Origin: Actinomycetota bacterium | GTDB taxonomy: Bacteria; Actinomycetota; Geothermincolia; Fen-727; Anoxymicrobiaceae | NCBI GenBank assembly: GCA_020062425.1 | Contig: JAGUWJ010000070.1 | Location: 1 to 57,520 of the forward strand | Reading direction: 5' to 3' | Length of the DNA stretch: 57,520 nt | Part shown: positions 14,915-55,359 of the stretch, one piece after another | Numbering within the stretch: the first letter of the stretch is position 1 | Layout of the letters: every line of letters starts with the position of its first letter | Program-made: the position numbers and the translations under genes | Notes under the pieces: model-generated | The model's input: the letters and a program-made list of their open reading frames with translations, nothing else | What the model was told of the DNA's origin: nothing | The model's database searches: none

Positions 14915-15014
14915 ATGCGCATCCACTCCTCTCGAGGGACACTTCGGACACTTCCAATATGCACCGTGTGATTCTACTATGTTACGCCATTCCAGGCACA
15001 TCTACACTCCAGAG

Positions 15015-15023
15015 TGGTATAAT
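15015..15023 (+). promoter_or_regulatory. extended -10 promoter (TGGTATAAT)
   Basis: Perfect TGnTATAAT about 190 nt upstream of the 15216 ORF. Confidence 0.55.
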
Positions 15024-15215
15024 TCCGAGCACGGCAACTGATCTGAAAACCACACACGAGCTGACAAGAATCAGTGGATGTGCGGTCTTTGCGCTCGCCT
15101 TGATATGCGCTCCCGGACTTGGATGCACGACGTCTGCTGCTAGCGGAGGGGGTGACATGAGGCAGCAGTCCGGTATCGGGCAGGTGGATGGAAAAGATGA
15201 CATGGGGTGTAGGAA

Positions 15216-15524
15216 ATGATACTCATGGTGACGGGGACCTATCCAATGACTTCTATCGATGAGTCCGTCAAAGTGTTCCTGGAGGTCATGAAAACTCCGC
15301 AACCGGATTACATCGAGACTCTTGGTTTCTATAACGCCTGGGGCGGCGAAGGGATCACCTTCTACATGATCCTCGACATTCCGGATGGGAAGATAGACGA
15401 CGGCCTGAGAGATATCACGGGCCACCTGGCCAATTACAGGTCTGTCGATGGATACAAGGTTCGCTACGAGATACTCTCAACCGTCGAAGACTCCCTGGCC
15501 TTCCTGGGTAAACAGATGCCTTGA
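15216..15524 (+). CDS. small hypothetical protein (alternating beta/alpha pattern)
   Basis: 102-aa ORF with normal composition downstream of a good promoter. Confidence 0.7.
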   Translation: MILMVTGTYPMTSIDESVKVFLEVMKTPQPDYIETLGFYNAWGGEGITFYMILDIPDGKIDDGLRDITGHLANYRSVDGYKVRYEILSTVEDSLAFLGKQMP

Positions 15525-15736
15525 GCCCGAACCAGTCGATATTTGAACCGGTCGAATCTGACCGGAACAAAGATAGGGAGGCGGGAAACCGCCTCTCTTC
15601 TTTCATGAACGGACCTTCAAGTTAGGATTGCTAGGCCGGACCACCCAGGTTGTCAAACCTTATGTTTTCTTGTAACTAATACGTGTGAACATATTCCCGG
15701 CTGCGGGCAGACGACAAGGGAGGCTGGCATGAAGGA

Positions 15737-16153
15737 CTACTTCTTCGACGGGGGGTCCACGCCCAGGCCGATGCAGACGCCATCGAGCGCGCTTTCGAAC
15801 GACCTGTATTCGTCCTGGTCATATTCCGACTCCCTGTAGAAGTCCTTGAGGTTCCGGCGGACCCTCGAGCGGACCTGGACGAAGACTATCCCGGCGAACA
15901 GCAGCAGGATGCCTGCGATGGCGAGAACTGCTACCGCCATGTTGAAGTCGCTTATCGACTCGAAGAGCCAGCACCGGCCCTGTGCGATAGCGACCAGCAG
16001 CATGGTGAGCGACAGGATGATACCGAAGATGAGCGGCGCCGGTATCGCCGCCATATATATGCGCGAGGTGATAGTGTAGAAACGGATTCGCTCGATGGCC
16101 TCAGTGCCCAGCTCCACGCGAGGTACCCCCCGTCTGGCTGTGCGATTCGACAC
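15737..16153 (-). CDS. hypothetical two-TM membrane protein, possibly a truncated M48/HtpX-like N-terminus
   Basis: Two hydrophobic helices, then ALDGVCIGLGVDPP and a stop. Confidence 0.5.
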   Translation of the reverse strand: MSNRTARRGVPRVELGTEAIERIRFYTITSRIYMAAIPAPLIFGIILSLTMLLVAIAQGRCWLFESISDFNMAVAVLAIAGILLLFAGIVFVQVRSRVRRNLKDFYRESEYDQDEYRSFESALDGVCIGLGVDPPSKK

Positions 16154-16234
16154 CTGTACCGCGTTAGGCTCCTATATGGTAACCTATGAGAGGCCCAGAA
16201 ACGTCTGGGCAATTATTTATTTCAGGAGAAGAAC

Positions 16235-16711
16235 ATGGAACACGAGCCCGTACTCACGTCCGAAGGCATGCAGGCGCTCAGGGAGAAGTTGGAGTATCTG
16301 GAGACCACCAGGCGCCGCGAGGTCTCGGAGCAGATGAAGAAAGCCCTCGACCACGGGGACCTTTCAGAGAATGCCGAATACGACGAAGCGCGAAACGCCT
16401 ACATGAAGCTGGAGAGGCAGATAAACGAGACTGCTTCGCTTATCGCCAGGGCCAGGGTCGTCGAGGATGGCGAGATCAGCACAGAGGCGGTGGGCGTGGG
16501 GTCGCTTGTTCAGGTAGAGGACATCGAGAACGGAGGCGCGACACAGGAGTTCAGGCTGGTCGGCCCCACCGAGTCGAACCCCGGGGAAGGCAAGATATCC
16601 CACCTCTGCCCCATCGGGATGTCGCTCATGAATTCCAGGCTGGGCGACGTCGTGTCTGTAAAGACCCCTGGCGGGCTCAGGAAGTACAGGATAGTCTCCA
16701 TAAACAAGTGA
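16235..16711 (+). CDS. greA: transcription elongation factor GreA
   Basis: HGDLSENAEYDEAR motif, VGVGSLV, KIS..CPIG.SL; AGGAG RBS. Confidence 0.95.
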   Translation: MEHEPVLTSEGMQALREKLEYLETTRRREVSEQMKKALDHGDLSENAEYDEARNAYMKLERQINETASLIARARVVEDGEISTEAVGVGSLVQVEDIENGGATQEFRLVGPTESNPGEGKISHLCPIGMSLMNSRLGDVVSVKTPGGLRKYRIVSINK

Positions 16712-16797
16712 TCTTCATCTGGGGTCCATCTTCCCCTGTTCAGCTAAAGGACACTTCCCTTGGTGCCTGACACCAACGGAAGACACCAACGGAAATT

Positions 16798-18666
16798 TCA
16801 GTTCGAGTTGGGCACCACCGGCAGGATCACCCGTGAGGCCGCGCCCAGCCGCCTCTGGACCGAGATGGCACTCGCGGTCCAGTTAGGCCAGCAGGTGATG
16901 AGGTCCGCCGTGGCTAGCTTCAGCCTGACGCGGCTCCCCGCCTTGAACTTGTGATAGACGGCCTGCATCTCAACGGGCTCGGCCGTGCGGCCGAACGCTC
17001 CACGCTTGGTGCTGTAGCCCTCGAACCACCCGCGCGAGACGAACGTCTCCTTCCCGTCCGGGCCCACCTCGAAGAGCCACGGTATGAGCTGGGTGAAGTT
17101 GGCAGTAGAGTAGTAGAAAGCCTCGAAACGGGGAGGGCCCATTATGGTCAATTCGCTCTTCAAAGGAGCGCTGGTGTATCGCATCTCTGTGTACGGTATG
17201 GTCATGAACTCCAGCCTGCGCGGGAAGTTCATCGCCGTCCCCCCGGTGAGCTGAGGCAGGTCCTGGAAGTAGAACAGCGAGATCGCCCCGGTCAGCCCCG
17301 TGTTGAGCATCGGGTCCTGACCGATGAGGTCCAGCGGGATACTGGTGCGCAGAGTGCCGCGCCCGTCAGGCCCCTTCCCACCAAGGTACAGGGAGGTCTT
17401 GCTGGTCGAGGGGAGCGGATACGCGGACGCGTGACCCAGGTTGTCAGGGGCGCCGCCTTTCCAGAACGCCACCGGAGGCTCGGCATCGACGCCGTTCTCG
17501 ATCCCCTTCAGGAAGCGGTCGAACCACCTGTCCACCTGCTCCCTGACCCACGCGCTCTCGGGGCTGCCCATATCAGCGGCAGGGTACGGCCCCGGGTAGC
17601 ACCCGAGGTGGCCGTGGTTCGTGATGATTATCCGCTTGGGGCCCGTGGTGTACTGGTACGCCATGAGGCCCTCGTTCGCGTAGAACAGGTCGTCGTTCCA
17701 GCCCGCCAGTATGAGCATCGGGGCGGTTATGGGGTGCTCCACCACCCCGTCATACTCAGCGTCGCACCAGTACCGTGCGGAGCGTACCCTCAAGAGCTGC
17801 TTTGCGTTCTCCTCCTCCGCCTTGTTGCGTTGGATGGCGACCCGGTAGATGTAGGCCAGCTTGTCGGTGACCCTGGTTATGGGTGGCACCATCTTCTGGA
17901 CCGCCTTGAGCAGCGCCTGAAGCTTCTGCATGCCGGTCATGGTCCTGTTCATGGCTATGGACATCAGGTTCAACATGAAGCCGGTGAAGTTGCCCATGTA
18001 CGTGGAAGCGAGCAGGGCGGTGGCCCAGAAGAACTTGACCACTCCGTTCGGGTAGAGCGAGAAGAGCAGGTCGAACGAGCCGTGCATGGGGATGACAGCC
18101 CTCAGGCGCTCGTCACCCGGGTCGCCCGGGCGGGGATCTTTCCTGGGAGCCTTCATGTAAGAGAAGCATCCTCCCATTGAGGCGCCGGTGATGCCGGCCA
18201 CCGCTCCCTTCCCGTCCGTGAGCAGCGGGAAGCGGATGTCGGCCTCGAGCAGGTCGATCAGGCAGCTCACGTCCCGCATATCCTTCTCGGGGTCCATACA
18301 GCCGACCTCGCCCCCCGCGCCGAACCAGCCGCGCGCGGTGAAAGCTACGCTGATGTATCCACGAGAGGCGTAGTATTTGGCCGCCCACTCCGACATGGTC
18401 TTATCGAGGGTCCAGCCGTGGATGACCAGTATCGCGGGGAACTTCTCATCGGGAGCCGCGTTGGAGGGGTAGAAGACCGAGACGGGAAGGGTGATGCCGT
18501 CCCACATGGTCCAGTCCTCTGTGACCTGGGCGACTTCGTAGACAGTCGCCTGCTCAGCTGCGGGGCTAACGGTGCCGGTCTCAGCCAGCGCGGTTACGCC
18601 GGATGTCAGCAGGAGCAGCATTACCAGCGTCAGAACGAGGATAATACGCAAACGTCGACCGTTCAT
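16798..18666 (-). CDS. secreted CocE/NonD (peptidase S15) family alpha/beta hydrolase
   Basis: Signal peptide, TMWDGITLPVSVFYP, nucleophile GASMGG, AGWNDDLF, C-terminal PepX-like jelly roll (FKAGSRVRLKL). Confidence 0.85.
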   Translation of the reverse strand: MNGRRLRIILVLTLVMLLLLTSGVTALAETGTVSPAAEQATVYEVAQVTEDWTMWDGITLPVSVFYPSNAAPDEKFPAILVIHGWTLDKTMSEWAAKYYASRGYISVAFTARGWFGAGGEVGCMDPEKDMRDVSCLIDLLEADIRFPLLTDGKGAVAGITGASMGGCFSYMKAPRKDPRPGDPGDERLRAVIPMHGSFDLLFSLYPNGVVKFFWATALLASTYMGNFTGFMLNLMSIAMNRTMTGMQKLQALLKAVQKMVPPITRVTDKLAYIYRVAIQRNKAEEENAKQLLRVRSARYWCDAEYDGVVEHPITAPMLILAGWNDDLFYANEGLMAYQYTTGPKRIIITNHGHLGCYPGPYPAADMGSPESAWVREQVDRWFDRFLKGIENGVDAEPPVAFWKGGAPDNLGHASAYPLPSTSKTSLYLGGKGPDGRGTLRTSIPLDLIGQDPMLNTGLTGAISLFYFQDLPQLTGGTAMNFPRRLEFMTIPYTEMRYTSAPLKSELTIMGPPRFEAFYYSTANFTQLIPWLFEVGPDGKETFVSRGWFEGYSTKRGAFGRTAEPVEMQAVYHKFKAGSRVRLKLATADLITCWPNWTASAISVQRRLGAASRVILPVVPNSN

Positions 18667-18803
18667 CTCAGATCCCTCCCCATAGAGATATGTCATTCCC
18701 AGTATCCGCACGCCGGTATTCTATCACACGCCATGAGATTCATCAGTTGCCATCGTCGCCATATGCGATAGAATTCACCCGAATTACAACTGGAGGCGCA
18801 CGC

Positions 18804-19349
18804 ATGAAAGTCAAAGTATGGAGATGCAGGATATGCGGCGACCCCTACATTGGGGCGGAGGCGCCGACCCACTGCCCGTTCTGCGGGGCGCACTCAGAGC
18901 ACATAATCCTCGCCAGCGACTGGGACGACCCCAGGGTCGCTTCCCTGAGCGATACCGACAGGGGCAACCTCGAGAAGGCGCTTAAGATCGAGCAATCCAA
19001 CACGGCGTACTATCGCTGCTCCGCCGGCAAAGCCGAAAAGGCGGGAGACTTCGAGGGTTTCGCCACCTTCAAGGCTCTCTCAAAGGTGGAAAACGAACAC
19101 GCCTCGACCATCCTGAAGATGCTGGGCCTGCCCAAGCCGGACAAAGAGCACACCGAAGAGTGCCACGACGCCTACGTCGACAATGTCAAGGAGTCGCTCA
19201 AGCGGGAGAAAAACGCCACCAAGTTCTACGCCGAGTCGGCTTCAGCCGCGACGGACCCCAGGGTCAAGGAGGTCTTCGCGGCTCTCTCCACCATAGAGGC
19301 CGACCACATACAGCTCGACGAGGACAAGCTGGCCAAACTCGAAGAATAA
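18804..19349 (+). CDS. reverse rubrerythrin-like protein (N-terminal rubredoxin + ferritin-like diiron domain)
   Basis: WRCRICG...CPFCGA, then ENEH and EADH ExxH motifs; GGAGG RBS. Confidence 0.88.
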   Translation: MKVKVWRCRICGDPYIGAEAPTHCPFCGAHSEHIILASDWDDPRVASLSDTDRGNLEKALKIEQSNTAYYRCSAGKAEKAGDFEGFATFKALSKVENEHASTILKMLGLPKPDKEHTEECHDAYVDNVKESLKREKNATKFYAESASAATDPRVKEVFAALSTIEADHIQLDEDKLAKLEE

Positions 19350-19395
19350 GCCGGCGGGCTGGCTCTGCATCTGAATTCCGGCTGCCAGAGGCGAG

Positions 19396-20586
19396 CTATT
19401 CTTCGATGTAATCTCTGAAAGAGCCGCTGACAGCGGGGTTGCTGAGCTTCGCGAGGGTCTTCGATTCGATCTGCCTTATACGCTCGCGCGTGACACCGAA
19501 CACTCGGCCTACTTCCTCCAGGGTCCTGGGCCTTCCGTCCAGAAACCCGAAACGCATCTGGACTATCCGTTTCTCTCTGGTCGAGAGGTCGTCGAGCACG
19601 TTTTCCAGTTGTTCCTGCAGCAGCGCGTAAGCAGCGGCGTCCATCGGCACAACCGCTTCACTGTCGTGGATGAAATCGGCGAGCGTGCTGTCTTCTTCCT
19701 TGCCTATCGGCGTCTCGAGCGATACGGGCACCTGGCTGGCCTTCTGTATCGCTCTCACTTTGTCGGGGCTCAGGTCCATCTCGCCGGCAAGCTCTTCCGG
19801 TGTTGGCTCGGTGCCGTTCTCCTGTAGCAAGCGCAGCCTGACTCGTGCGAGCCTGTTCATGTTCTCGACCATGTGGACCGGCACCCGGATGGTCCTTCCC
19901 TGGTCGGCCAGCGCCCGGGTGACCGCCTGGCGTATCCACCAGGTGGCATATGTGCTGAACTTGAAGCCTTTTGTGTAATCGTACTTCTCCACCCCGCGGA
20001 TCAGTCCGAGGTTGCCTTCCTGGATAAGGTCCAGGAAGAGCATGCCGCGCCCCACGTAACGCTTCGCTATGCTGACCACCAGCCGGAGATTCGCTTCGGC
20101 GAGCTTCTTCTTGGCCTCCAGCCCGTCCGCCTCGAGTTCTTTGAGGGCTTCCACCTCATCTTCGGGAAGCTGACCGTCCCGCTCCAGCGCAGTCGAGGCT
20201 TTGCAGCCACTCTCGATCCTGCGTGCCAGCGAGACCTCCTGCCCCGCCGTAAGCAGTGGGACCTTGCCGATCTCTTTGAGGTACATTCGTACGGGGTCGT
20301 TGAGCGGGCCTCCGTAAGAGTCGTCGTTCTCGGGAGCGGGTTCCGCTGTCTCCCCGCTCGCGCTCCCGTCGTCATCCGCTCCCTCGAGATCGTCAGTCAG
20401 CTCGTCCCGGATATCTATACCGGACTCGATCAAGCAGACGTATATGTCATCCATCTGGTCGGGAGATATCTCTACGCCTTTGAGTGCTTCGACGATGCCG
20501 CCCGTAGTGAGGAAGCCCTTCTCTCTTCCGGAGGCGGCAAGCTCGCGCACCTCTTCAAGGTCCGTAATCACAAGAAGGTCTGACAT
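19396..20586 (-). CDS. rpoD: RNA polymerase sigma-70 factor, RpoD-like (stand-alone copy)
   Basis: Region 1.1-like (GREKGFLT), 1.2 [11 protein letters not shown], region 2 [35 protein letters not shown], 4.2 [10 protein letters not shown]. Confidence 0.92.
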
Positions 20587-20618
20587 GGGAATTTCCTTGT
20601 TGCGGCCGTCCAGATCGC

Positions 20619-20693
20619 CCTCCTCTTCGCAGAAAAAAAGCCCCGAGAATCGCTTCTCGGGACCTCTCGATCTCACCAAAGAAAACCAGACTC
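20619..20693 (-). promoter_or_regulatory. conserved 5' leader with terminator-like hairpin, copy 1 (rpoD)
   Basis: Minus strand GAGT...TTCTTTGGT-11-GTCCCGAGAA(GCGA)TTCTCGGGGC-TTTTTTT-CTGC...AGGAGG; near-identical element at 55117-55191. Confidence 0.75.
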
Positions 20694-20700
20694 GTCTATA

Positions 20701-21921
20701 TTATCTCACACTTATGTGATCAGTCGCGCGTGATCTGGCGCCGGGCGTCGATACGCGGTAGACCACTCCAACGTAATCGTCAGAGATAAACATGGTCCCG
20801 CCGCCATCGAACAGTATGTCTACGGGCCTTCCCACGTAATCGCCTGCGGACTCGAGCCAGCCCGTTATCATGTCGCGGAAGCCCTTGTAGCCGCCGTCCG
20901 AATCCAGTTCGAACCTGACCACCTTGTAGCCGGTGGGGACGCTCCGGTTCCATGAGCCGTGGTAGGCGACCGCGAGGTCTCCCTCGTACTCTGCCGGCCA
21001 TCCGCGCTCGGGGAAGAACGCGAGTCCCAGCGGCGCTGAATGAGCCTGGATGTCGATGTGGGAAGGGGTCTTGCCTCCGCAGGGGTCGTCCGAGGTCGGG
21101 TTGGGGTCGAAGTCATCGTCGTGGACGTTCTTCCCGTAACAGACGGGCCAGCCGTAGTCTCCTCCCTCTCGAACGATGTTTATCTCGTCGGGCGGCACGT
21201 CGTCTCCCAGAAGATCGCGACCCATCTCGGTGGCCCAGATCTCGCCTGTCCCAGGACGGACCGCCATGAAGACAGAGTTGCGCAGGCCCGAGGCGAACGT
21301 CTCCACAGCTCCCCCGTCGACGTCCACCACCAGTATCCTGGCTCTCCTCTGGTCCTCCTCATAGCACACGTTGCACGACGAGCCTACGGATATGAGGAGC
21401 CTGTCCTGGTCGGGGGCAGGCATGAACAACAGCGAGCGGGTGAAGTGAACACCCCTTGACGGCAGATCTGCGATCTTTCGCTTCCCCGTCACGCTAAACG
21501 ACGGCGGGTCGTAGTCGTAGACAGCGACCTGGTCGGTCTCTGCAATGTAGAGCTTGGTTTCATCCGACGGATCGAAAGCAAGGCCGTGTGGGAGATTCAA
21601 GCCCTCTGCCACCGTCACTGTCTCATCTGATGCGCCGTCATTGTTCTTATCGGGGAGCGCAAGTACCTTGCCCTGGCGTGGGGTGCTGACCAGTATCGTC
21701 CCTTTCGAATCGAGGACCAGGTCTCGCGGTCCCTCCAGGTCCTTTGCGAAGAACGAAATCGAGGCCCCGTCTTCAAGTTCCAGCGGCATCCCCGTTGAAT
21801 TGGCTGCTTCTGAATCTGCGCGCGGGCTGGAATCTTCCGGGGGAGCGTCGCTGCCGCAACCCGCGAGCCCAACGAGCAGCATCGCGGTCAAAACGAAAAC
21901 GAGAGCGTTTCTACCATTCAT
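20701..21921 (-). CDS. PQQ-dependent glucose/sorbosone dehydrogenase family lipoprotein
   Basis: Lipobox LAGC; SVGSSCNVC, GLRNSV, DYGWP, AHSAPLG, HGSWNR, GRPVD motifs. Confidence 0.9.
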   Translation of the reverse strand: MNGRNALVFVLTAMLLVGLAGCGSDAPPEDSSPRADSEAANSTGMPLELEDGASISFFAKDLEGPRDLVLDSKGTILVSTPRQGKVLALPDKNNDGASDETVTVAEGLNLPHGLAFDPSDETKLYIAETDQVAVYDYDPPSFSVTGKRKIADLPSRGVHFTRSLLFMPAPDQDRLLISVGSSCNVCYEEDQRRARILVVDVDGGAVETFASGLRNSVFMAVRPGTGEIWATEMGRDLLGDDVPPDEINIVREGGDYGWPVCYGKNVHDDDFDPNPTSDDPCGGKTPSHIDIQAHSAPLGLAFFPERGWPAEYEGDLAVAYHGSWNRSVPTGYKVVRFELDSDGGYKGFRDMITGWLESAGDYVGRPVDILFDGGGTMFISDDYVGVVYRVSTPGARSRATDHISVR

Positions 21922-22074
21922 CTGCAAGAATCCCTCTCTCTGAATGCATGTTTATCTTCTCGGCTCCCGCGGCAGCCCCTCCCCCAGGCTGCGGTTCGAG
22001 TACTTGGAGGTTTTAGGCTGCAGGAGATGAAGTGAGTCCAGGCAAGCGCGTCTTACGCCAGAGGGAGTGAAAGT

Positions 22075-23034
22075 TTGAGGCTTTTTCGGCCTGAAGTGTT
22101 CCAGGGGAGCTTACGGAAAAGACATTACTTTGAGGGGTGGTACTTCAAGCACGTCTCCCCTGACCTCGAAAACGCCTACGCATTCATCGCCGGAATCTCG
22201 CTCGCGCCGGGCGATTCCCACTCGTTCATCCAGATCCTGAACGGCATCACCGGAGAGACACACTACGCGCAGTACGGCGTGGACGATTTCACCTGGGAGA
22301 GAGACCGGCTCCTGGTGCGGGTGGGCGACTCGCTCTTCACCGATAAGTTCATCGAGCTGGCCATCGACAGCCCGGGGGTGAACGCCGCCGGAAGGGTCGA
22401 GTACCTGGACCCGGTACGGTACCCGAAGAGCCTCCTCGCGCCGGGAATAATGGGGTGGTACCAGTACGTCCCGTTCATGGAGTGCTACCACGGCATAGTC
22501 TCCGCCGACCACTCACTCAGGGGCACCGTAACAGTGAACGGTGCGACCATCGACTTCGGCGGGGGGAGGGGCTACATCGAGAAGGACTGGGGCAGGTCGT
22601 TCCCCGACGGATACCTCTGGCTGCAGTGCAACACCTTCGAGGCAGACGGCGTATCTCTTTTCCTTTCCGTGGCAAGAATACCCTGGCTGGGCAGGTTCTT
22701 CGTCGGGCTCATCAGCTTCCTCTATTGCGACGGCGGGTTTCACCTCTTCAGCACTTACAACAGGTCGAAGATCGCAGAAACAAGGCACGGCGGCGGCTCG
22801 CTCGCAGTCACGCTCGAGAACGCGCAGTCGCGCCTGGAGGCGGAGGCTTCGATGAGCAGGTCCGGCGAGCTCAAGGCACCCTCATCCGGCGAGATGTCGC
22901 GGCGCATCAAGGAGAGCATCGACTCGGAGGTACGGGCGAGACTCACCAGCAGCCGGGACGGAAAGGTCATATTCGAGGGCTTCGGCCGGAGGGCCGGGCT
23001 CGAGGTAATAGAGAAGATATTCGACTATGTCTGA
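22075..23034 (+). CDS. tocopherol cyclase family protein
   Basis: YFEGWYFK, IMGWY..VPFMECYHG, GYIEKDWGRSFP..YLWLQCN motifs. Confidence 0.88.
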   Translation: MRLFRPEVFQGSLRKRHYFEGWYFKHVSPDLENAYAFIAGISLAPGDSHSFIQILNGITGETHYAQYGVDDFTWERDRLLVRVGDSLFTDKFIELAIDSPGVNAAGRVEYLDPVRYPKSLLAPGIMGWYQYVPFMECYHGIVSADHSLRGTVTVNGATIDFGGGRGYIEKDWGRSFPDGYLWLQCNTFEADGVSLFLSVARIPWLGRFFVGLISFLYCDGGFHLFSTYNRSKIAETRHGGGSLAVTLENAQSRLEAEASMSRSGELKAPSSGEMSRRIKESIDSEVRARLTSSRDGKVIFEGFGRRAGLEVIEKIFDYV

Positions 23035-23038
23035 CCGC

Positions 23039-23308
23039 TCAACCGTCCTTGAGCGTCGGATCGTGCTTTCCGATATTCCTCAGGACAACGGTGGATCCCT
23101 CCTCTCCGAACTCCCAGGTGAAACGGTAGAAATCCGTAACACGGGAAGCGTAGACTCCACCTTTGATCCTTTCAGTTTTGAGCGAGGGGTAGAACGGGTC
23201 CTCAATGAAGAGTTCGATCTGCTTGCTGAATCTCTTCTTGATATCCCTGGGGAGTTTGTCAAAGGCTCTGTCGAACCTTCGTAGACTTACGATTCTTTCC
23301 AGAGGCAC
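23039..23308 (-). CDS. type II TA toxin, RelE/ParE superfamily
   Basis: F.RAFDKL...F.EDP.YPSLKT.RI...RVT.FYR.T...LRNIG.HD pattern; overlaps the antitoxin. Confidence 0.8.
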   Translation of the reverse strand: MPLERIVSLRRFDRAFDKLPRDIKKRFSKQIELFIEDPFYPSLKTERIKGGVYASRVTDFYRFTWEFGEEGSTVVLRNIGKHDPTLKDG

Positions 23309-23588
23309 GCGAACTGATCTCCTTCTTGAACTCCTCCACCTCCATCACGGTAAACCTGCCTGCCTTGAGATCCTCATCGGCCTCCCGTTCGCCCGCCTGC
23401 CATTCAGGAGTCCAGAACCATGCCTGAGATCTATCGATTGAGAGCTGGGGAGTTACCTCGAACGTGCCGCTGGATTCATCGACATGAACGCAGACGGTAT
23501 CGCCGTCGGCCAGGTTCAGCCGTTTTCTCACATCGGCGGGTATGACCATGGTGCCCCTCTTACCGATTCTGGTGATCACGTCTTTCAC
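23259..23588 (-). CDS. AbrB/MazE/SpoVT family antitoxin
   Basis: RIGKRGTMVIPADVRKRLNLADGD AbrB motif plus QAWFWTPEWQAGEREAD tail; GAGGAGG RBS before GTG. Confidence 0.88.
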   Translation of the reverse strand: MKDVITRIGKRGTMVIPADVRKRLNLADGDTVCVHVDESSGTFEVTPQLSIDRSQAWFWTPEWQAGEREADEDLKAGRFTVMEVEEFKKEISSRASGKNRKSTKVRQSL

Positions 23589-23611
23589 TCAGTCCTCCTC
23601 ACCGATTACTT

Positions 23612-23649
23612 CTGATATTCAGAATATCAGTACTTCAGAGCAATGTCAA
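23612..23649 (-). promoter_or_regulatory. sigma-70 promoter of the TA operon with overlapping palindromic operator
   Basis: Minus strand TTGACA (23649-23644)-17 nt-TATTCT (23626-23621) with TGn extension; perfect palindrome CTGATATTC-A-GAATATCAG at 23612-23630. Confidence 0.8.
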
Positions 23650-23656
23650 TCAGGTT

Positions 23657-23697
23657 CCGGGAATTCCGCTTCGCCTACGGCTCCGCTCCATTCCCGG
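23657..23697. repeat. REP-like inverted-repeat element
   Basis: CCGGGAAT...ATTCCCGG arms around a pyrimidine-rich core CTTCGCCTACGGCTCCGCTCC; single copy in the window. Confidence 0.35.
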
Positions 23698-23790
23698 GGC
23701 AGGCAAGACCTCTCCTCTTGCCTACCAAGGTTTTACAGCAGCCCGTTAAGAGTTGAATTGATATGCATCGGAGTGTCGCGCCCAGTGATA

Positions 23791-24576
23791 CTACCTGGTG
23801 TAGCGCTCGATCATGCGCAGTATGAAGTACTTGAGCGGCCTGGGCGTGATGCCCATCACCATAACGTTAAAGCGGTTGACGAACCCCGGCACTACCACTA
23901 CCTTGCCGCGTCTGAGGCCCTTGAGCGATGCGTTCACCACGGTATCCGTATTCGTCCACAAGATCCAGGGGATGCTTCTCTCCAGGCCAATCGCCTCAAA
24001 GATGCCGGTGTGAGTGAATCCCGGGCAGAGCGCCTGTACACGCACGCCGGTGCCTTTGAGTTCTTCGTGAAGGGTCTCCGTGAACATTATCAAGAACGCC
24101 TTGGTGGCGCTGTATGTGACGTTGTAAGGCACGGGGATTATGCCGCCGACCGAGGCTACGTTTATCACGACGCCGTTGCCGCGCGCGGTCATGCCGGGGA
24201 GCGCCGCGTGAGTCAGCCGCAGGATCGCGACGTCGTGCAGCTTCAGAAGCCGCAGCTGAGAATCGATATCGATCTCCACGAAGACTCCGTTGAGGCCGGT
24301 GCCGGCGTTGTTCACCAGGATGTCGGGCGCATTCGAGCCGGCAAGGCGCTCCTCCAGGCGGGCCACGTCCTCGTCGCGCTCGAGATCGGCAACGATGACC
24401 TCGACGTCTATTCCGTGTTTTCCGGAAAGTTCACAAGCGAGTCTTTCGAGGAGTTCCTTGCGCCTGGCGGTTACGATGAGGTTGCAGCCGTCCTCGGCCA
24501 GCTTGCGGGCGAAAACCTCCCCGATTCCGCTGGACGCCCCTGTCACGAGCGCGGTCTTGCCTTTGAACTCGGGCAT
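23791..24576 (-). CDS. SDR family oxidoreductase
   Basis: TGASSGIG, NNAG, YSATK; GGAGG RBS before ATG 24576. Confidence 0.92.
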   Translation of the reverse strand: MPEFKGKTALVTGASSGIGEVFARKLAEDGCNLIVTARRKELLERLACELSGKHGIDVEVIVADLERDEDVARLEERLAGSNAPDILVNNAGTGLNGVFVEIDIDSQLRLLKLHDVAILRLTHAALPGMTARGNGVVINVASVGGIIPVPYNVTYSATKAFLIMFTETLHEELKGTGVRVQALCPGFTHTGIFEAIGLERSIPWILWTNTDTVVNASLKGLRRGKVVVVPGFVNRFNVMVMGITPRPLKYFILRMIERYTR

Positions 24577-24751
24577 CGAAGCCACCTCCAGCCTTGGAGC
24601 AGCGCCCGTGAGACGGGTGTTCCGCTTCCCCGTATCCCGCACAACGGATACCACTATAACGCTTGAACTTATGTATTACACTAGAGACATGGGACCTCTA
24701 ACAAGTGGCGCATCCGGTCCTTGACCGGGTGCCGATCAGCGGAGGCGGTCT

Positions 24752-27367
24752 TTGAACGAAGAGCAGGTCACGAGCGGCATACCCGAGCTCGACGAGATAG
24801 TGCAGGGGCTGCGCCTGGGTGACAACGTGGTGTTCCAGGTGCAGCGCCTCTCCGATTACCAGTTCTTCGCCCTGCCGTTCCTCGAGCGCGCGCTCTCCGA
24901 GTCGCGGAAATGCGTGTACCTCCGCTTCGCGCCCCAGCCCCCGGTTTCCATGCCCCGCGAGGGGTTGAGGATAGTAGAGATTAACCCGGGTCAGGGGTTC
25001 GACGCGTTCAGCCGCGAGGTGCACGAGTTAGTCGAGGAGAGCGGCAAGCGCACCTACTATGTGCTGGACAACCTCTCCAGGCTCGCGCTGGAGTGGGCGA
25101 CCGACGAGCTCCTGGCGAACTTCTTCCAGGTCACATGCCCGCTGATGTTCGAGCTGGACTGCGTGGCCTACTTCGCGCTCTCCAGGGGTAAGCACGACCA
25201 CTCGGCCATCGCACGCATCAGAGACACCACCCAGCTCTTGCTCGATGTGTTCCGTATTGACGAGCATATGTACGTCCACCCACTCAAAGTCTGGGACCGC
25301 TATTCCCCCTACATGTTCCTCCCCCACTCCGTGGCAGACGGCACCTGGCAGCCGGTTTTCGACAGCGGCACCGCGGCCGCGGTCTCAGCCGAGGCCAACG
25401 TGCAGCCGTTCGAGCCCCCCGCCAGCGGACTCGCTCCCTGGGACAGCGTCTACGACAAGCTGAAAGCCCGAATGACCACCACCTCTCCGGGCGACCCGGA
25501 GGTGGAGGCTCTGAAAAGCGAGTTCGCCAGGATGCTCACAGGGCAGCACCAGGACTTCTCCGGCATCATCGATGAGTACCTGACGCTGGAAGACCTCCTC
25601 GGTGTGAGGCACAGGATGCTGGGCTCCGGCCAGATAGGCGGCAAGGCCACGGGAATGCTCCTGGCCCGCGCTATTCTCGGGAACAGGGGCTCCTGGGAAG
25701 GTGTGGTGTTCGACGACATACTGGACAGCCACGACTCTTTTTATATCGGCGCCGACGTCTTCTTCAGCTTCCTGGTGCAGAACGACCTGTTCCGCCTGCG
25801 TCTCAAGATGACATCCGACAGCGCCATCAGCGACGAAGAGTTCGCGGAAGTCGAAAGGCGCTTCCTCGAAGGGCGCTTCTCCCACTCGGTCGAAGAGCAG
25901 TTCCGCGACCTGCTCGACTACTACGGACAGGCTCCGATAATCGTCAGGTCCTCCAGCCTTCTGGAAGACAGCTTCGGCAACGCTTTCGCAGGCAAGTACC
26001 GGAGCGAATTCTGCGCCAACCAGGGCTCACCCGATGAGCGTCTGGAGGTGTTCAAGCGGGCTGTGAAGCTCGTCTACGCGAGCGCCTTAAACCCTGACGC
26101 CCTAGCCTACAGGCGCAAGCGCGGCCTGGGTGTGAACGACGAGCAGATGGCGATACTGGTGCAGCGGGTGTCGGGGACACCTTACCGCGGCTACTTCTTC
26201 CCGCCGCTCGCCGGGGTTGCTTTCTCCAAGAACCTCTACGCCTGGGGCGACAGGATCGACCCGCGGGAGGGAGTGGTGCGTATAGTGATGGGGCTGGGCA
26301 CCAGGGCTGTGGACCGGGTGGCGAGCGACTACCCGCGCATGCTGGCGCTCAGCCACCCCGAGCTGCGCCCTGAGGGGTCCGGCGAGATTTCAAAGTACTC
26401 GCAGCACTACGTGGACCTCCTCGACTTGCGCGCCAACAGTTTCAGCACGGTGCCGCTGGACGAACTGCTCGTCGACGGGGACTACCCCGACCTGAGCCTG
26501 ATAGCCTCGCTCGAGCAGGACGGCTCGGTGATCGACTTCATTGGCAGGTGCCTTCCCGCGGGGCACAGGAAGCTGGTTCTCACCTTCGACCGCCTGGTGA
26601 AGAAGACGAAGTTCGTAGAGGTGTTGCGCGCAATGCTGGCCTGCCTGGAGGACGGGTACGGGTGCCCTGTCGACATCGAGTTTACCGCGTTCGCGGGCAG
26701 AAAAGACCGGGTGCGTGTTAACCTGCTGCAGTGCAGGCCGCTCTTCGTGGCGGGTGAATCCGGGGTGGCCATGGTGCCCGATTCTCTCGAACCGTGGAGG
26801 GTGCTCTTCCGCACCGGGCGCATGATAGGGGCCGGGCGCTTGGGCGGCATCCGCTACATCCTCTACATCGACCCCCGCAGGTACAGCGCCATGACCGACC
26901 CGGACCTGCGCCGGGGCCTGGGCAGGCTCATCGGCCGGTTGAACGACCACCCGCGGGTCAAGGAGGACAGGATAGTGCTGATGGGCCCGGGCCGCTGGGG
27001 CTCGACCAACCTCGAGCTGGGCATAGACGTCCGCTATGGTGAGATAGACAACGCCTGCGCGCTCATCGAACTCGCCCGTGAGGAGTCGGGGCACGTGCCG
27101 GAGGTCTCGTACGGGACGCACTTCTTCCAGGACCTGGTGGAGGAAGGGATAATCTACATGCCGGTCTGGCCGGACGATCCGGGCTCTGAGTTCAACGAGC
27201 GGTTCTTCGAAGCCGAGCCTAATGCGTTGCTCGAGCTGGTGCCGGGCGCGGAGGACGTTCTCGACGTGGTCAAGGTCATCGACCTGGGCGCGGAGAACCG
27301 CGGGAGGACAGGCGTGGTTGTGGCCGACCCGCGCAGCCGCAAGGCGCTGATGTACCTCGAGGGCTGA
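24752..27367 (+). CDS. PEP/pyruvate-binding (PPDK_N ATP-grasp) domain protein with degenerate KaiC/RecA-like N-terminus
   Basis: N-terminus TSGIPELDEIVQGLRLGDNVV; IGGKATG, VRSSSLLEDS..AFAGKY, GLGTRAV, PVDIEF, LLQCRP; C-terminal GPGRWG and SYGTHFFQDL. Confidence 0.85.
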   Translation: MNEEQVTSGIPELDEIVQGLRLGDNVVFQVQRLSDYQFFALPFLERALSESRKCVYLRFAPQPPVSMPREGLRIVEINPGQGFDAFSREVHELVEESGKRTYYVLDNLSRLALEWATDELLANFFQVTCPLMFELDCVAYFALSRGKHDHSAIARIRDTTQLLLDVFRIDEHMYVHPLKVWDRYSPYMFLPHSVADGTWQPVFDSGTAAAVSAEANVQPFEPPASGLAPWDSVYDKLKARMTTTSPGDPEVEALKSEFARMLTGQHQDFSGIIDEYLTLEDLLGVRHRMLGSGQIGGKATGMLLARAILGNRGSWEGVVFDDILDSHDSFYIGADVFFSFLVQNDLFRLRLKMTSDSAISDEEFAEVERRFLEGRFSHSVEEQFRDLLDYYGQAPIIVRSSSLLEDSFGNAFAGKYRSEFCANQGSPDERLEVFKRAVKLVYASALNPDALAYRRKRGLGVNDEQMAILVQRVSGTPYRGYFFPPLAGVAFSKNLYAWGDRIDPREGVVRIVMGLGTRAVDRVASDYPRMLALSHPELRPEGSGEISKYSQHYVDLLDLRANSFSTVPLDELLVDGDYPDLSLIASLEQDGSVIDFIGRCLPAGHRKLVLTFDRLVKKTKFVEVLRAMLACLEDGYGCPVDIEFTAFAGRKDRVRVNLLQCRPLFVAGESGVAMVPDSLEPWRVLFRTGRMIGAGRLGGIRYILYIDPRRYSAMTDPDLRRGLGRLIGRLNDHPRVKEDRIVLMGPGRWGSTNLELGIDVRYGEIDNACALIELAREESGHVPEVSYGTHFFQDLVEEGIIYMPVWPDDPGSEFNERFFEAEPNALLELVPGAEDVLDVVKVIDLGAENRGRTGVVVADPRSRKALMYLEG

Positions 27368-54834: not shown

Positions 54835-55107
54835 CTAGTAGCGGGACGAACGCTGCGGGCGCTCCTCCCTCGGCCTTGCCACGTTGACATTCAGACTGCG
54901 GCCGTCTACGTCTTTGCCGTTCAAGGCATCGATCGCCGCCTGGCCTTCGGTGTCATTGCTCATCTCGACAAAACCGAATCCCTTCGACCTGCCGGTTCCG
55001 CGATCCATGATCACGTCGGCTGAATCCACCGTGCCGTACTGGCTGAAAGCCTGTCTGATGTCTTCCTCGCTGGTTGAATAGCTGAGGTTTCCAACATATA
55101 TCTTCAT
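54835..55107 (-). CDS. RRM (RNP-1) RNA-binding protein
   Basis: RNP2 IYVGNL and RNP1 KGFGFVEM; AAGGAGG RBS. Confidence 0.95.
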   Translation of the reverse strand: MKIYVGNLSYSTSEEDIRQAFSQYGTVDSADVIMDRGTGRSKGFGFVEMSNDTEGQAAIDALNGKDVDGRSLNVNVARPREERPQRSSRY

Positions 55108-55116
55108 TCTTCTGCA

Positions 55117-55191
55117 CCTCCTTTGTGCATAAAAAAAGCCCCGAGATCAGATCCTCGGGACAATAACTTCACTACCTAAGAACTTTAACTC
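55117..55191 (-). promoter_or_regulatory. conserved 5' leader with terminator-like hairpin, copy 2 (RRM gene)
   Basis: Minus strand GAGT...TTCTTAGGT-12-GTCCCGAGG(ATCTGA)TCTCGGGGC-TTTTTTT-ATGC...AGGAGG; extended -10 TGCTACAAT at 55206-55198. Confidence 0.75.
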
Positions 55192-55359
55192 AAGCGCATT
55201 GTAGCACATTATCCGCCGTTGTGCATCTTTTCATACCGGCGGGCGCTGCGCGCAGCAAGAGGTCGGCAACGGTTTCGCCTGCCACTTGCCACTGCGTTTT
55301 GTATATCATTGTATAAAGGGAGAAGATCTTTCGAGCGACCGAGCGGCGGGAGGTTCGCC

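Follow-up and report, generated by a model that had tools for sequence, protein, structure and literature searches.

Two near-identical 61-nt elements, both on the minus strand, were found at 20693..20633 and 55191..55131 of the window (the whole stretch of 57,520 nucleotides analysed), the first in front of an RpoD-like sigma-70 paralogue and the second in front of a gene encoding a single-domain RRM protein, and they belong to a class-wide family in Candidatus Geothermincolia. The element is very probably a conserved cis-regulatory leader of a gene set made up of RRM, sigma and B12-binding radical SAM (B12-rSAM) genes. It is real and well conserved, but it is not a new principle, and on sequence grounds the RRM proteins probably use it to set their own level along with that of a few linked genes.

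Both copies have a common layout. Behind an extended -10, GAGU stands at the predicted +1 and opens a U/G-rich, unpaired 5' part in which a UUCUU-AGGU box lies; the CCCGAGG/CCUCGGG hairpin follows, and then a U6-7 tract. In copy 1, upstream of the sigma paralogue, GAGU is followed by a U-rich run with UUCUUUGGU (box at 20683..20675), a 10-bp hairpin (GUCCCGAGAA-GCGA-UUCUCGGGGC, 20663..20640, -16.4 kcal/mol) and U7 (20639..20633). Copy 2, upstream of the RRM gene, is laid out in the same way with UUCUUAGGU (box at 55182..55174), a 9-bp stem (hairpin 55161..55138, -13.5 kcal/mol) and U7 (55137..55131); the stems differ between the copies by A-U vs G-U, and the GCGA loop is that of copy 1. The TGnTAnAAT elements TGAGATAAT (copy 1, 20700..20708, minus strand) and TGCTACAAT (copy 2, 55198..55206, minus strand) end 6 nt before GAGT and are the putative promoters; the former contains the stop codon of a GSDH-like gene (20703..20701), and the latter is a conserved element. 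The -10s, the GCGA loop, the A-U/G-U swap and the U7 tracts had been listed in a preliminary description of this DNA and read as stated there. The Shine-Dalgarno (SD) sequence of the RRM gene, GGAGGTG (55115..55121, minus strand), lies about 8-9 nt past the copy 2 U-tract, and a GGAGGUG-type SD occupies the equivalent position in RRM-linked copies. Because the upstream neighbour of copy 2 is divergent (a PFL-like glycyl radical enzyme on the plus strand from about 55360), no co-directional gene ends at this copy.

The hairpin plus U7 pattern had exactly two matches in the window (20663..20633 and 55161..55131, minus strand) and none in each of 100 shuffles, which bears out the proposal that the same leader precedes both the rpoD paralogue and the RRM gene. 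The TTCTTWGGT box likewise matched exactly twice (20683..20675 and 55182..55174), albeit not significantly by itself (0.48 expected; at least two matches in 6 of 100 shuffles), and the two matches sit at equal offset upstream of the two hairpins. A third copy was present on another contig of the same genome (G000:C197:2697..2637), with a perfect TGGTATAAT, in front of a B12-binding radical SAM gene. Across the three copies 31 of 61 columns were invariant, with a mean column identity of 80%. Nearly all leader copies conserve the TGnTAnAAT element 6-7 nt ahead of the 5' G; no -35 match was found by the promoter scan. Simple promoter and terminator scans listed neither the leader promoter nor the hairpin, which a genome-wide hairpin scan did list. 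The simple terminator scan of window positions 15000..26000 returned 7 sites (7.8 expected), and the region's strongest hairpin plus U7, at 20663..20633, was not among them.

The gene behind copy 2 (54835..55107, minus strand) encodes a 90-aa protein with a single RRM domain (Pfam RRM_1, E 7.4e-24), which matched NCBIfam NF058537 'RNA-binding regulator' at 122.4 bits (cut-off 100) and whose PDB relatives include hnRNP A1, CIRBP and the tobacco glycine-rich RBP 4c7q. The sigma-70 paralogue behind copy 1 (396 aa, 19396..20586, minus strand) carries Pfam regions 1.1, 1.2, 2, 3 and 4 and scored 356.4 bits against the NCBIfam RpoD_Cterm cut-off of 354; a second RpoD-like gene of the genome (G000:C64:6558-7721) is 68% identical to it. 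The radical SAM gene behind the third copy (G000:C197; 110..1444 of locus L005, minus strand) has orthologues at G011:C28 and G005:C288 and reached no NCBIfam cut-off, with its best partial likenesses being to BchE, HpnJ and lipid-modifying B12-rSAM families.

We assessed how the element is distributed with two covariance models (CMs). The first (R1), built from only this genome's three copies (one each upstream of an RRM, a sigma and an rSAM gene), scored 74.1 bits on copy 1 and 73.9 bits on copy 2, and found matches in 15 of the 16 other genomes of the same family, with weaker ones in two other families of the class. In the 50 loci searched, 46 of 52 R1 matches lay directly upstream of RRM genes; the products of these genes start MKIY(V/A)GNLSY, and the U-tract is followed by 8-10 nt, GGAGGUG and the start codon. 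The second model (R2), built from 50 copies, scored 63.9 bits on copy 1. It matched all 17 family genomes at E<=0.01, and at E<=0.001 it matched 36 of the 51 genomes of the class. Pooled R2 matches from the 51 genomes of Candidatus Geothermincolia numbered 67: 61 had a Pfam RRM_1 match within 80 nt downstream, one preceded an RRM gene cut by a contig end, two were upstream of the sigma paralogue (G000 and G002) and three upstream of B12-rSAM orthologues (G000, G011 and G005), with none of the 67 at any other kind of site. Copy number was 1-5 per genome, all in these three gene contexts, and in a 151-genome sample of the phylum the sole match outside the class was a plain terminator with no RRM gene (G096).

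These counts support a 5' leader over an arbitrary terminator or repeat, in agreement with the preliminary description, and its tie to RRM proteins and to the sigma paralogue held when this and related genomes were scanned and the downstream genes listed. The proposed regulon proved to be a small gene set (RRM, sigma and rSAM), and the csp, DEAD-box helicase and translation-factor members that had been expected were not found; the region upstream of the genome's single csp (CSD) gene has no such leader. A repeat or mobile element of the REP or MITE type was rejected, given 1-5 copies per genome in three gene contexts only. The element had also been thought to be outside the named Rfam families, and no Rfam model reached its gathering score over the whole window; at E<=10 only unrelated sRNA models, far below their cut-offs, matched either copy, with no cspA-type cold-shock leader among them.

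Within the class the leader marks about half of the RRM genes, as 61 of 124 RRM_1 matches have an R2 match and 63 of 124 do not. Some R2-negative RRM genes have visibly diverged leaders with the same hairpin, and at least three RRM loci inspected (L194, L196 and L198) have no leader. The second RRM gene of the genome (G000:C95:1000-1110, i.e. L006 1000..1110, plus strand) follows a diverged leader with TGCTATAGT and no UUCUU-AGGU box, in which the hairpin arms are swapped (CUCGGGA / UCCCGGG) ahead of U7 and GGAGGUG and which scored only 21.5 bits with R1. Upstream of the RRM gene at locus L187 (G009:C107) lies another diverged leader, with GGUUUUUCUGGUAGGU, in which the hexamer UUCUGG, identical to the minimal binding site reported for AtGRP7, is present. 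Among RRM loci of other phyla, R1 matched 2 of 75, both of them Actinomycetota, and a hairpin plus T5 within 160 nt upstream was present in 2 of the 72 loci with enough upstream sequence, one of which belongs to this family. The leader as a general property of RRM genes was rejected on these counts.

RNA libraries contained matches to part of the RRM locus in ten runs from nine studies, of which four (X1-X4) were mapped. One contig from X1 (55017-55167, one difference) and one from X4 (55019-55166), of two studies, join the RRM coding region, SD, U-tract and hairpin, and X2 and X3 cover mostly the conserved RRM coding parts of relatives. These contigs report read-through molecules only, with ends, strand and amount not readable and DNA carry-over possible; their coverage reaches neither upstream of 55189 nor downstream of 54848, which says nothing on transcript ends. 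Molecules in which the hairpin is joined to the coding sequence are the expectation for a leader, and not for a start site downstream of the hairpin. They also count against the very improbable alternative that the elements are independent small RNA genes, each with its own promoter and terminator (1-5 per genome), that stand beside RRM genes and act in trans via the box. A promoter, about 61 nt and a terminator do form a complete transcription unit, and the unpaired, conserved box is seed-like. However, 62 of the 67 matches lie 8-10 nt before an RRM SD on the same strand with no space for a second promoter, their orientation is fixed, and the RRM start codon always lies 74-90 nt from the predicted +1.

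The sigma gene itself acquired its position by deletion. In relatives the order is of an ancestral type, leader-RRM-sigma: the closest sigma orthologues (68-77% identity; G004, G016, G010, G001, G014 and G006) follow a leader-RRM unit of the same orientation at a distance of about 100 nt, and in G011 the 3' end of an RRM gene is found at a contig edge just before the sigma copy. Other arrangements are leader-sigma-leader-RRM (G002) and sigma followed by a leader-like hairpin and RRM gene (G005), and overall at least 10 of the 17 genomes of the family have the sigma gene next to the leader or an RRM gene. When window copy 1 was aligned pairwise to three leader-RRM-sigma loci (L144, L146 and L143), the window had kept the leader and the RRM SD, lacked about 200 nt, had kept about 21 nt of RRM codons and lacked a further stretch of about 150 nt, which in the relatives includes an intergenic GC hairpin; the native AAGGAAATTCCC-ATG flank of the sigma gene follows. 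The relic of the lost RRM gene (20599..20625, minus strand) thus comprises the SD GAGGAGG (20625..20619) and a stretch of about 21 nt aligned with the RRM codons that specify G(K)DLDGRN, and the sigma gene starts at 20586, 46 nt past the copy 1 U-tract. From these alignments, AGAGGAGG after copy 1 is the leftover SD of the deleted RRM gene and not the ribosome-binding site of rpoD, and the sigma gene came to stand directly behind the leader through loss of the RRM open reading frame from an RRM-sigma operon.

This history revises two points of the preliminary description, which had placed the same leader before rpoD and before an RRM gene 34 kb away and had counted an 8-nt gap to the RBS among the shared features. 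Since an RRM-sigma operon lost its RRM reading frame and left a relic in the window, the leader was not separately recruited to rpoD; the linkage is ancestral, and the 8-nt gap leads to the relic SD. The RRM-sigma intergenic hairpin of relatives, conserved and GC-rich (GGCGGYGGCGC-loop-GCCGCCGG), was observed without a U-run about 20-60 nt past the RRM stop at L143, L144, L146 and L147; its role may be that of an internal attenuator or of a processing site, and it is deleted in the window.

A GSDH-like gene (21927..20701, minus strand; Pfam GSDH, E 2.7e-13) ends 7 nt before the GAGU of copy 1, with the copy 1 hairpin 38 nt past its stop. As its stop codon falls inside the -10, GSDH-like transcription must enter the leader and the hairpin, which can therefore also act as the terminator of this co-directional gene. 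It is extremely improbable that this is all the rpoD copy does, i.e. that its hairpin is just the GSDH-like terminator and its likeness to RRM leaders a functionless leftover. Such a reading can point to a real GSDH-like reading frame that ends inside the -10 and to the fact that the leader no longer has its former RRM gene. Against it, the deletions have spared the whole leader with its -10 and box (63.9-74.1 bits), G002 independently has the leader directly before the sigma orthologue, and both roles can coexist.

The anatomy of the family was examined in 61 distinct leaders, with hairpin statistics taken from a CM-based alignment of 66 rows, one of which is an antisense read of the palindromic stem (L019:1531-1555). 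The 5' part spans 24-39 nt (median 30), with a composition of 40% U, 30% G, 20% A and 10% C. A pyrimidine run followed by (A/G/U)GG(U/A) is present in 55 of 61 leaders, with a freely variable spacer behind it. The hairpin is kept by compensatory changes: 92.8% of its cells are paired, and both-side changes occur at 5 of 10 pairs (17 cells), a level reached in 0 of 500 shuffles and far above that of slid controls. The core is near-invariant, with three C-G pairs unchanged in 65-66 of 66 rows and a neighbouring G-C that hardly ever changes. Because the stem core varies so little, much of the apparent evidence for structure is conservation, which is also compatible with a sequence-specific protein site on the hairpin. 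The window stems, GC-rich with 9-10 pairs and directly followed by U7, have the form of an intrinsic terminator, and the U-tract (U6-8 across the family) has at least six T in 55 of the 56 leaders measured (61 scanned).

Hairpins followed by at least six T are scarce in this genome, with only 38 such sites in 2.5 Mb (61.6% GC), 4 of which are RRM-type leaders. This fits the scarcity of such terminators that PMC2965389 describes for Actinobacteria, where attenuators are given as more frequent at RNA-binding-protein genes. Five further sites of this kind in the genome (C63:9453, C137:263, C206:4487, C13:17331 and C158:2667) are followed within 10-35 nt by a GGAGG-type SD, with a start codon visible at C63, C137 and C206 only, and may be additional leader attenuators of unrelated sequence.

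We questioned whether the 5' part could take part in an alternative fold. It pairs with neither hairpin arm beyond shuffles (mean z +0.52 and -0.20; n = 61), which speaks against an antiterminator, and RNAalifold on a MAFFT alignment of 61 extended leaders returned no other helices, in a run that missed the hairpin too as two loop-length groups were misaligned. SD masking was likewise absent, with a mean z of +0.22 for pairing between 5' part and SD and 0 of 56 leaders below -1.5; SD pairing was predicted only in the rpoD copy, where the SD is a relic. Several candidates were rejected on such grounds. An RNA thermometer of the fourU or ROSE type was dropped as SD-pyrimidine pairing was no better than shuffles in 56 leaders, and the same held for the energies of antiterminator or anti-SD pairing of the box, which is visible by eye with either arm and with the SD. 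A leader peptide was set aside because, although an open reading frame spans box and hairpin in both window copies, start codons and frames are not conserved in 61 leaders. An SD-like 'stabiliser' box was discarded, the longest SD-consensus match being mostly the 4-mer AGGU (mean 4.39 vs 3.81 shuffled) in an assembly without a 16S 3' end.

The lack of any switching structure could also suit a constitutive expression module, in which the hairpin would be a 5' exonuclease barrier or processing end, the U-run a translation enhancer and the 5' part a promoter-proximal initiation sequence. Nearly all RRM copies do place a strong promoter element, hairpin, U-run and strong SD within 90 nt. However, the hairpin-U module is still kept at the sigma and rSAM copies (five loci in four genomes), where there is no adjacent SD and the start codon is 32-74 nt away; the box is conserved class-wide and the adjacent spacer is not, which suggests a binding site; and U7 directly after a GC hairpin is a canonical termination signal that is very rare in the genome. 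We regard such a module as quite unlikely.

The reading that we favour, tentatively and at slightly less than an even chance, is a factor-dependent transcription attenuator read by the RRM proteins, probably in negative feedback. Its parts differ in strength. That the leader acts through termination is rather likely; that the RRM proteins are the factor falls just short of an even bet; and if they are, negative control would be moderately favoured over positive by analogy with other systems. Dependence on a factor is suggested because no antiterminator, leader peptide or SD masking was found, and the element combines a promoter close to consensus with a conserved box that is unpaired, a terminator of canonical form and a strong SD but offers no alternative fold, which points to a trans-acting factor that binds single strands. 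The most obvious candidate is the canonical RRM protein encoded just behind the leader, the more so as the box is similar to the U-rich-GG sites of self-repressing plant single-RRM proteins. The role would be transcriptional and not translational, as the module is kept at sigma and rSAM genes whose start codons are distant. Under this attenuator model, transcription would begin at GAGU (a predicted start site) from the strong extended -10 promoter, and the first 30 nt or so, which are rich in U and G, poor in C and contain a pyrimidine run ahead of (A/G/U)GGU, would remain single-stranded. Most polymerases would halt at the U-tract, and the read-through fraction would yield the RRM protein and the genes behind the leader, i.e. 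the sigma-70 paralogue in the same operon and the B12-radical-SAM gene at separate copies. The RRM protein would bind the single-stranded box of its own leader and so close a negative feedback loop. Titration of the free RRM protein, as might occur under cold or RNA-folding stress, would raise read-through.

The same attenuator could have the opposite sign, with RRM proteins or the single Csp coating the U/G-rich strand, invading the left arm of the hairpin and causing antitermination, which would create a positive loop of the Csp-antitermination type in which the RRM protein switches on its own gene, the sigma paralogue and the rSAM gene. We consider this unlikely, albeit credible. In its favour, steric blocking of the hairpin is the simplest action of a single-strand binder when no other RNA structure competes, termination should be the default for a hairpin of -13 to -16 kcal/mol with U7, PMC12232666 cites CspA as a factor for antitermination of transcription, and the genome has one CSD gene. 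However, a pure positive loop needs another trigger, none of which is visible, and in the accounts of PMC13370968 and PMC2602770 RRM and Csp family proteins repress their own genes wherever tested. The negative sign was chosen on precedent in other phyla, including the Bacteroides and cyanobacterial rbp genes and the enrichment of attenuators at RNA-binding-protein genes, and not on anatomy, with which antitermination is at least equally compatible.

Bacterial single-RRM proteins are emerging as cold-shock-type RNA chaperones, and the control of their genes is at issue. The present leader consists of just one unpaired box and one terminator, which is unusually simple; it is conserved class-wide and shared with a sigma-factor gene, and it accounts for a sigma-70 paralogue that travels with an RRM gene in uncultured Actinomycetota. 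It also offers a clean in vitro system, as RRM-regulated termination could be tested with a single RNA polymerase, a 150-bp template and the 90-aa protein, and the covariance model is available for a new Rfam-type family. A decidedly improbable extension of the attenuator model is that the free RRM level is the sensor of an RNA-folding-stress circuit, in which the 61-nt terminated leaders would be trans decoys that buffer the RRM protein and read-through would set the level of a primary-like sigma factor; this assumes abundant 61-nt transcripts from several near-consensus promoters per genome. If true, the decoy circuit would wire an RNA chaperone to promoter choice, as a titration switch of the DnaK/sigma-32 type that works via transcription termination.

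Our literature search, which did not extend to motif lists in supplements, found no description of the element or of the RRM-sigma linkage in Geothermincolia. Related systems are known. The Chlorobi-RRM motif (RF01697) is tabulated as a likely cis-regulatory RNA and not a riboswitch by Weinberg et al. 2010 (PMC2864571), and with that motif in print since 2010 the leader is not new in kind, contrary to the preliminary description. Both are lineage-specific conserved RNA elements upstream of RRM genes (here 62 of 67 matches). However, they come from different phyla, RF01697 matched neither copy even at E<=10, and the Geothermincolia element also serves sigma and rSAM genes and has an unpaired 5' part. 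The Chlorobi-RRM motif reportedly has two hairpins before its terminator. The E. coli cspA gene, which encodes a cold-shock RNA chaperone, resembles the present case in its conserved 5' leader and its negative autoregulation; its 159-nt structured, thermosensing leader has a cold box, and its product has another protein fold. No Rfam cspA-type match was obtained for either copy, and here the terminator lies inside the gene's own leader. Csp-type chaperones alter read-through of intrinsic terminators, as cited in PMC13370968 and PMC12232666.

In protein-dependent attenuators such as those of ribosomal proteins and PyrR, the leader contains a terminator that is controlled by the RNA-binding product of the same gene (PMC2965389). 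These classic cases differ from the present leaders in using competing antiterminator and terminator folds, of which none was found here. In Arabidopsis, the single-RRM proteins AtGRP7 and AtGRP8 bind a U-rich-GG stretch in their own transcripts and lower their own expression, at the sites AUUUUGUUCUGGU and GUUUUUGGUUUAG with UUCUGG as the minimal AtGRP7 site, according to PMC2602770 and PMC4117745. These sites resemble GUUCUUAGGU or GUUUUUGGU in the leaders, a likeness that carries little information because the boxes are short and U/G-rich, and the eukaryotic mechanism differs in being alternative splicing plus NMD. The Bacteroides rbpA, rbpB and rbpC UTRs were compared by description and not by sequence; they are 122-155 nt long, with no terminator named in the account of PMC13370968 (preprint 2026). 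The proteins are single-RRM proteins of the same NCBIfam type as the one encoded in the window, and RbpA, RbpB and RbpC are described there as cold-induced and as repressing themselves and each other, partly via their 5' UTRs. In Synechocystis, rbp1 is reported to rise in an rbp2 rbp3 double mutant (PMC12232666).
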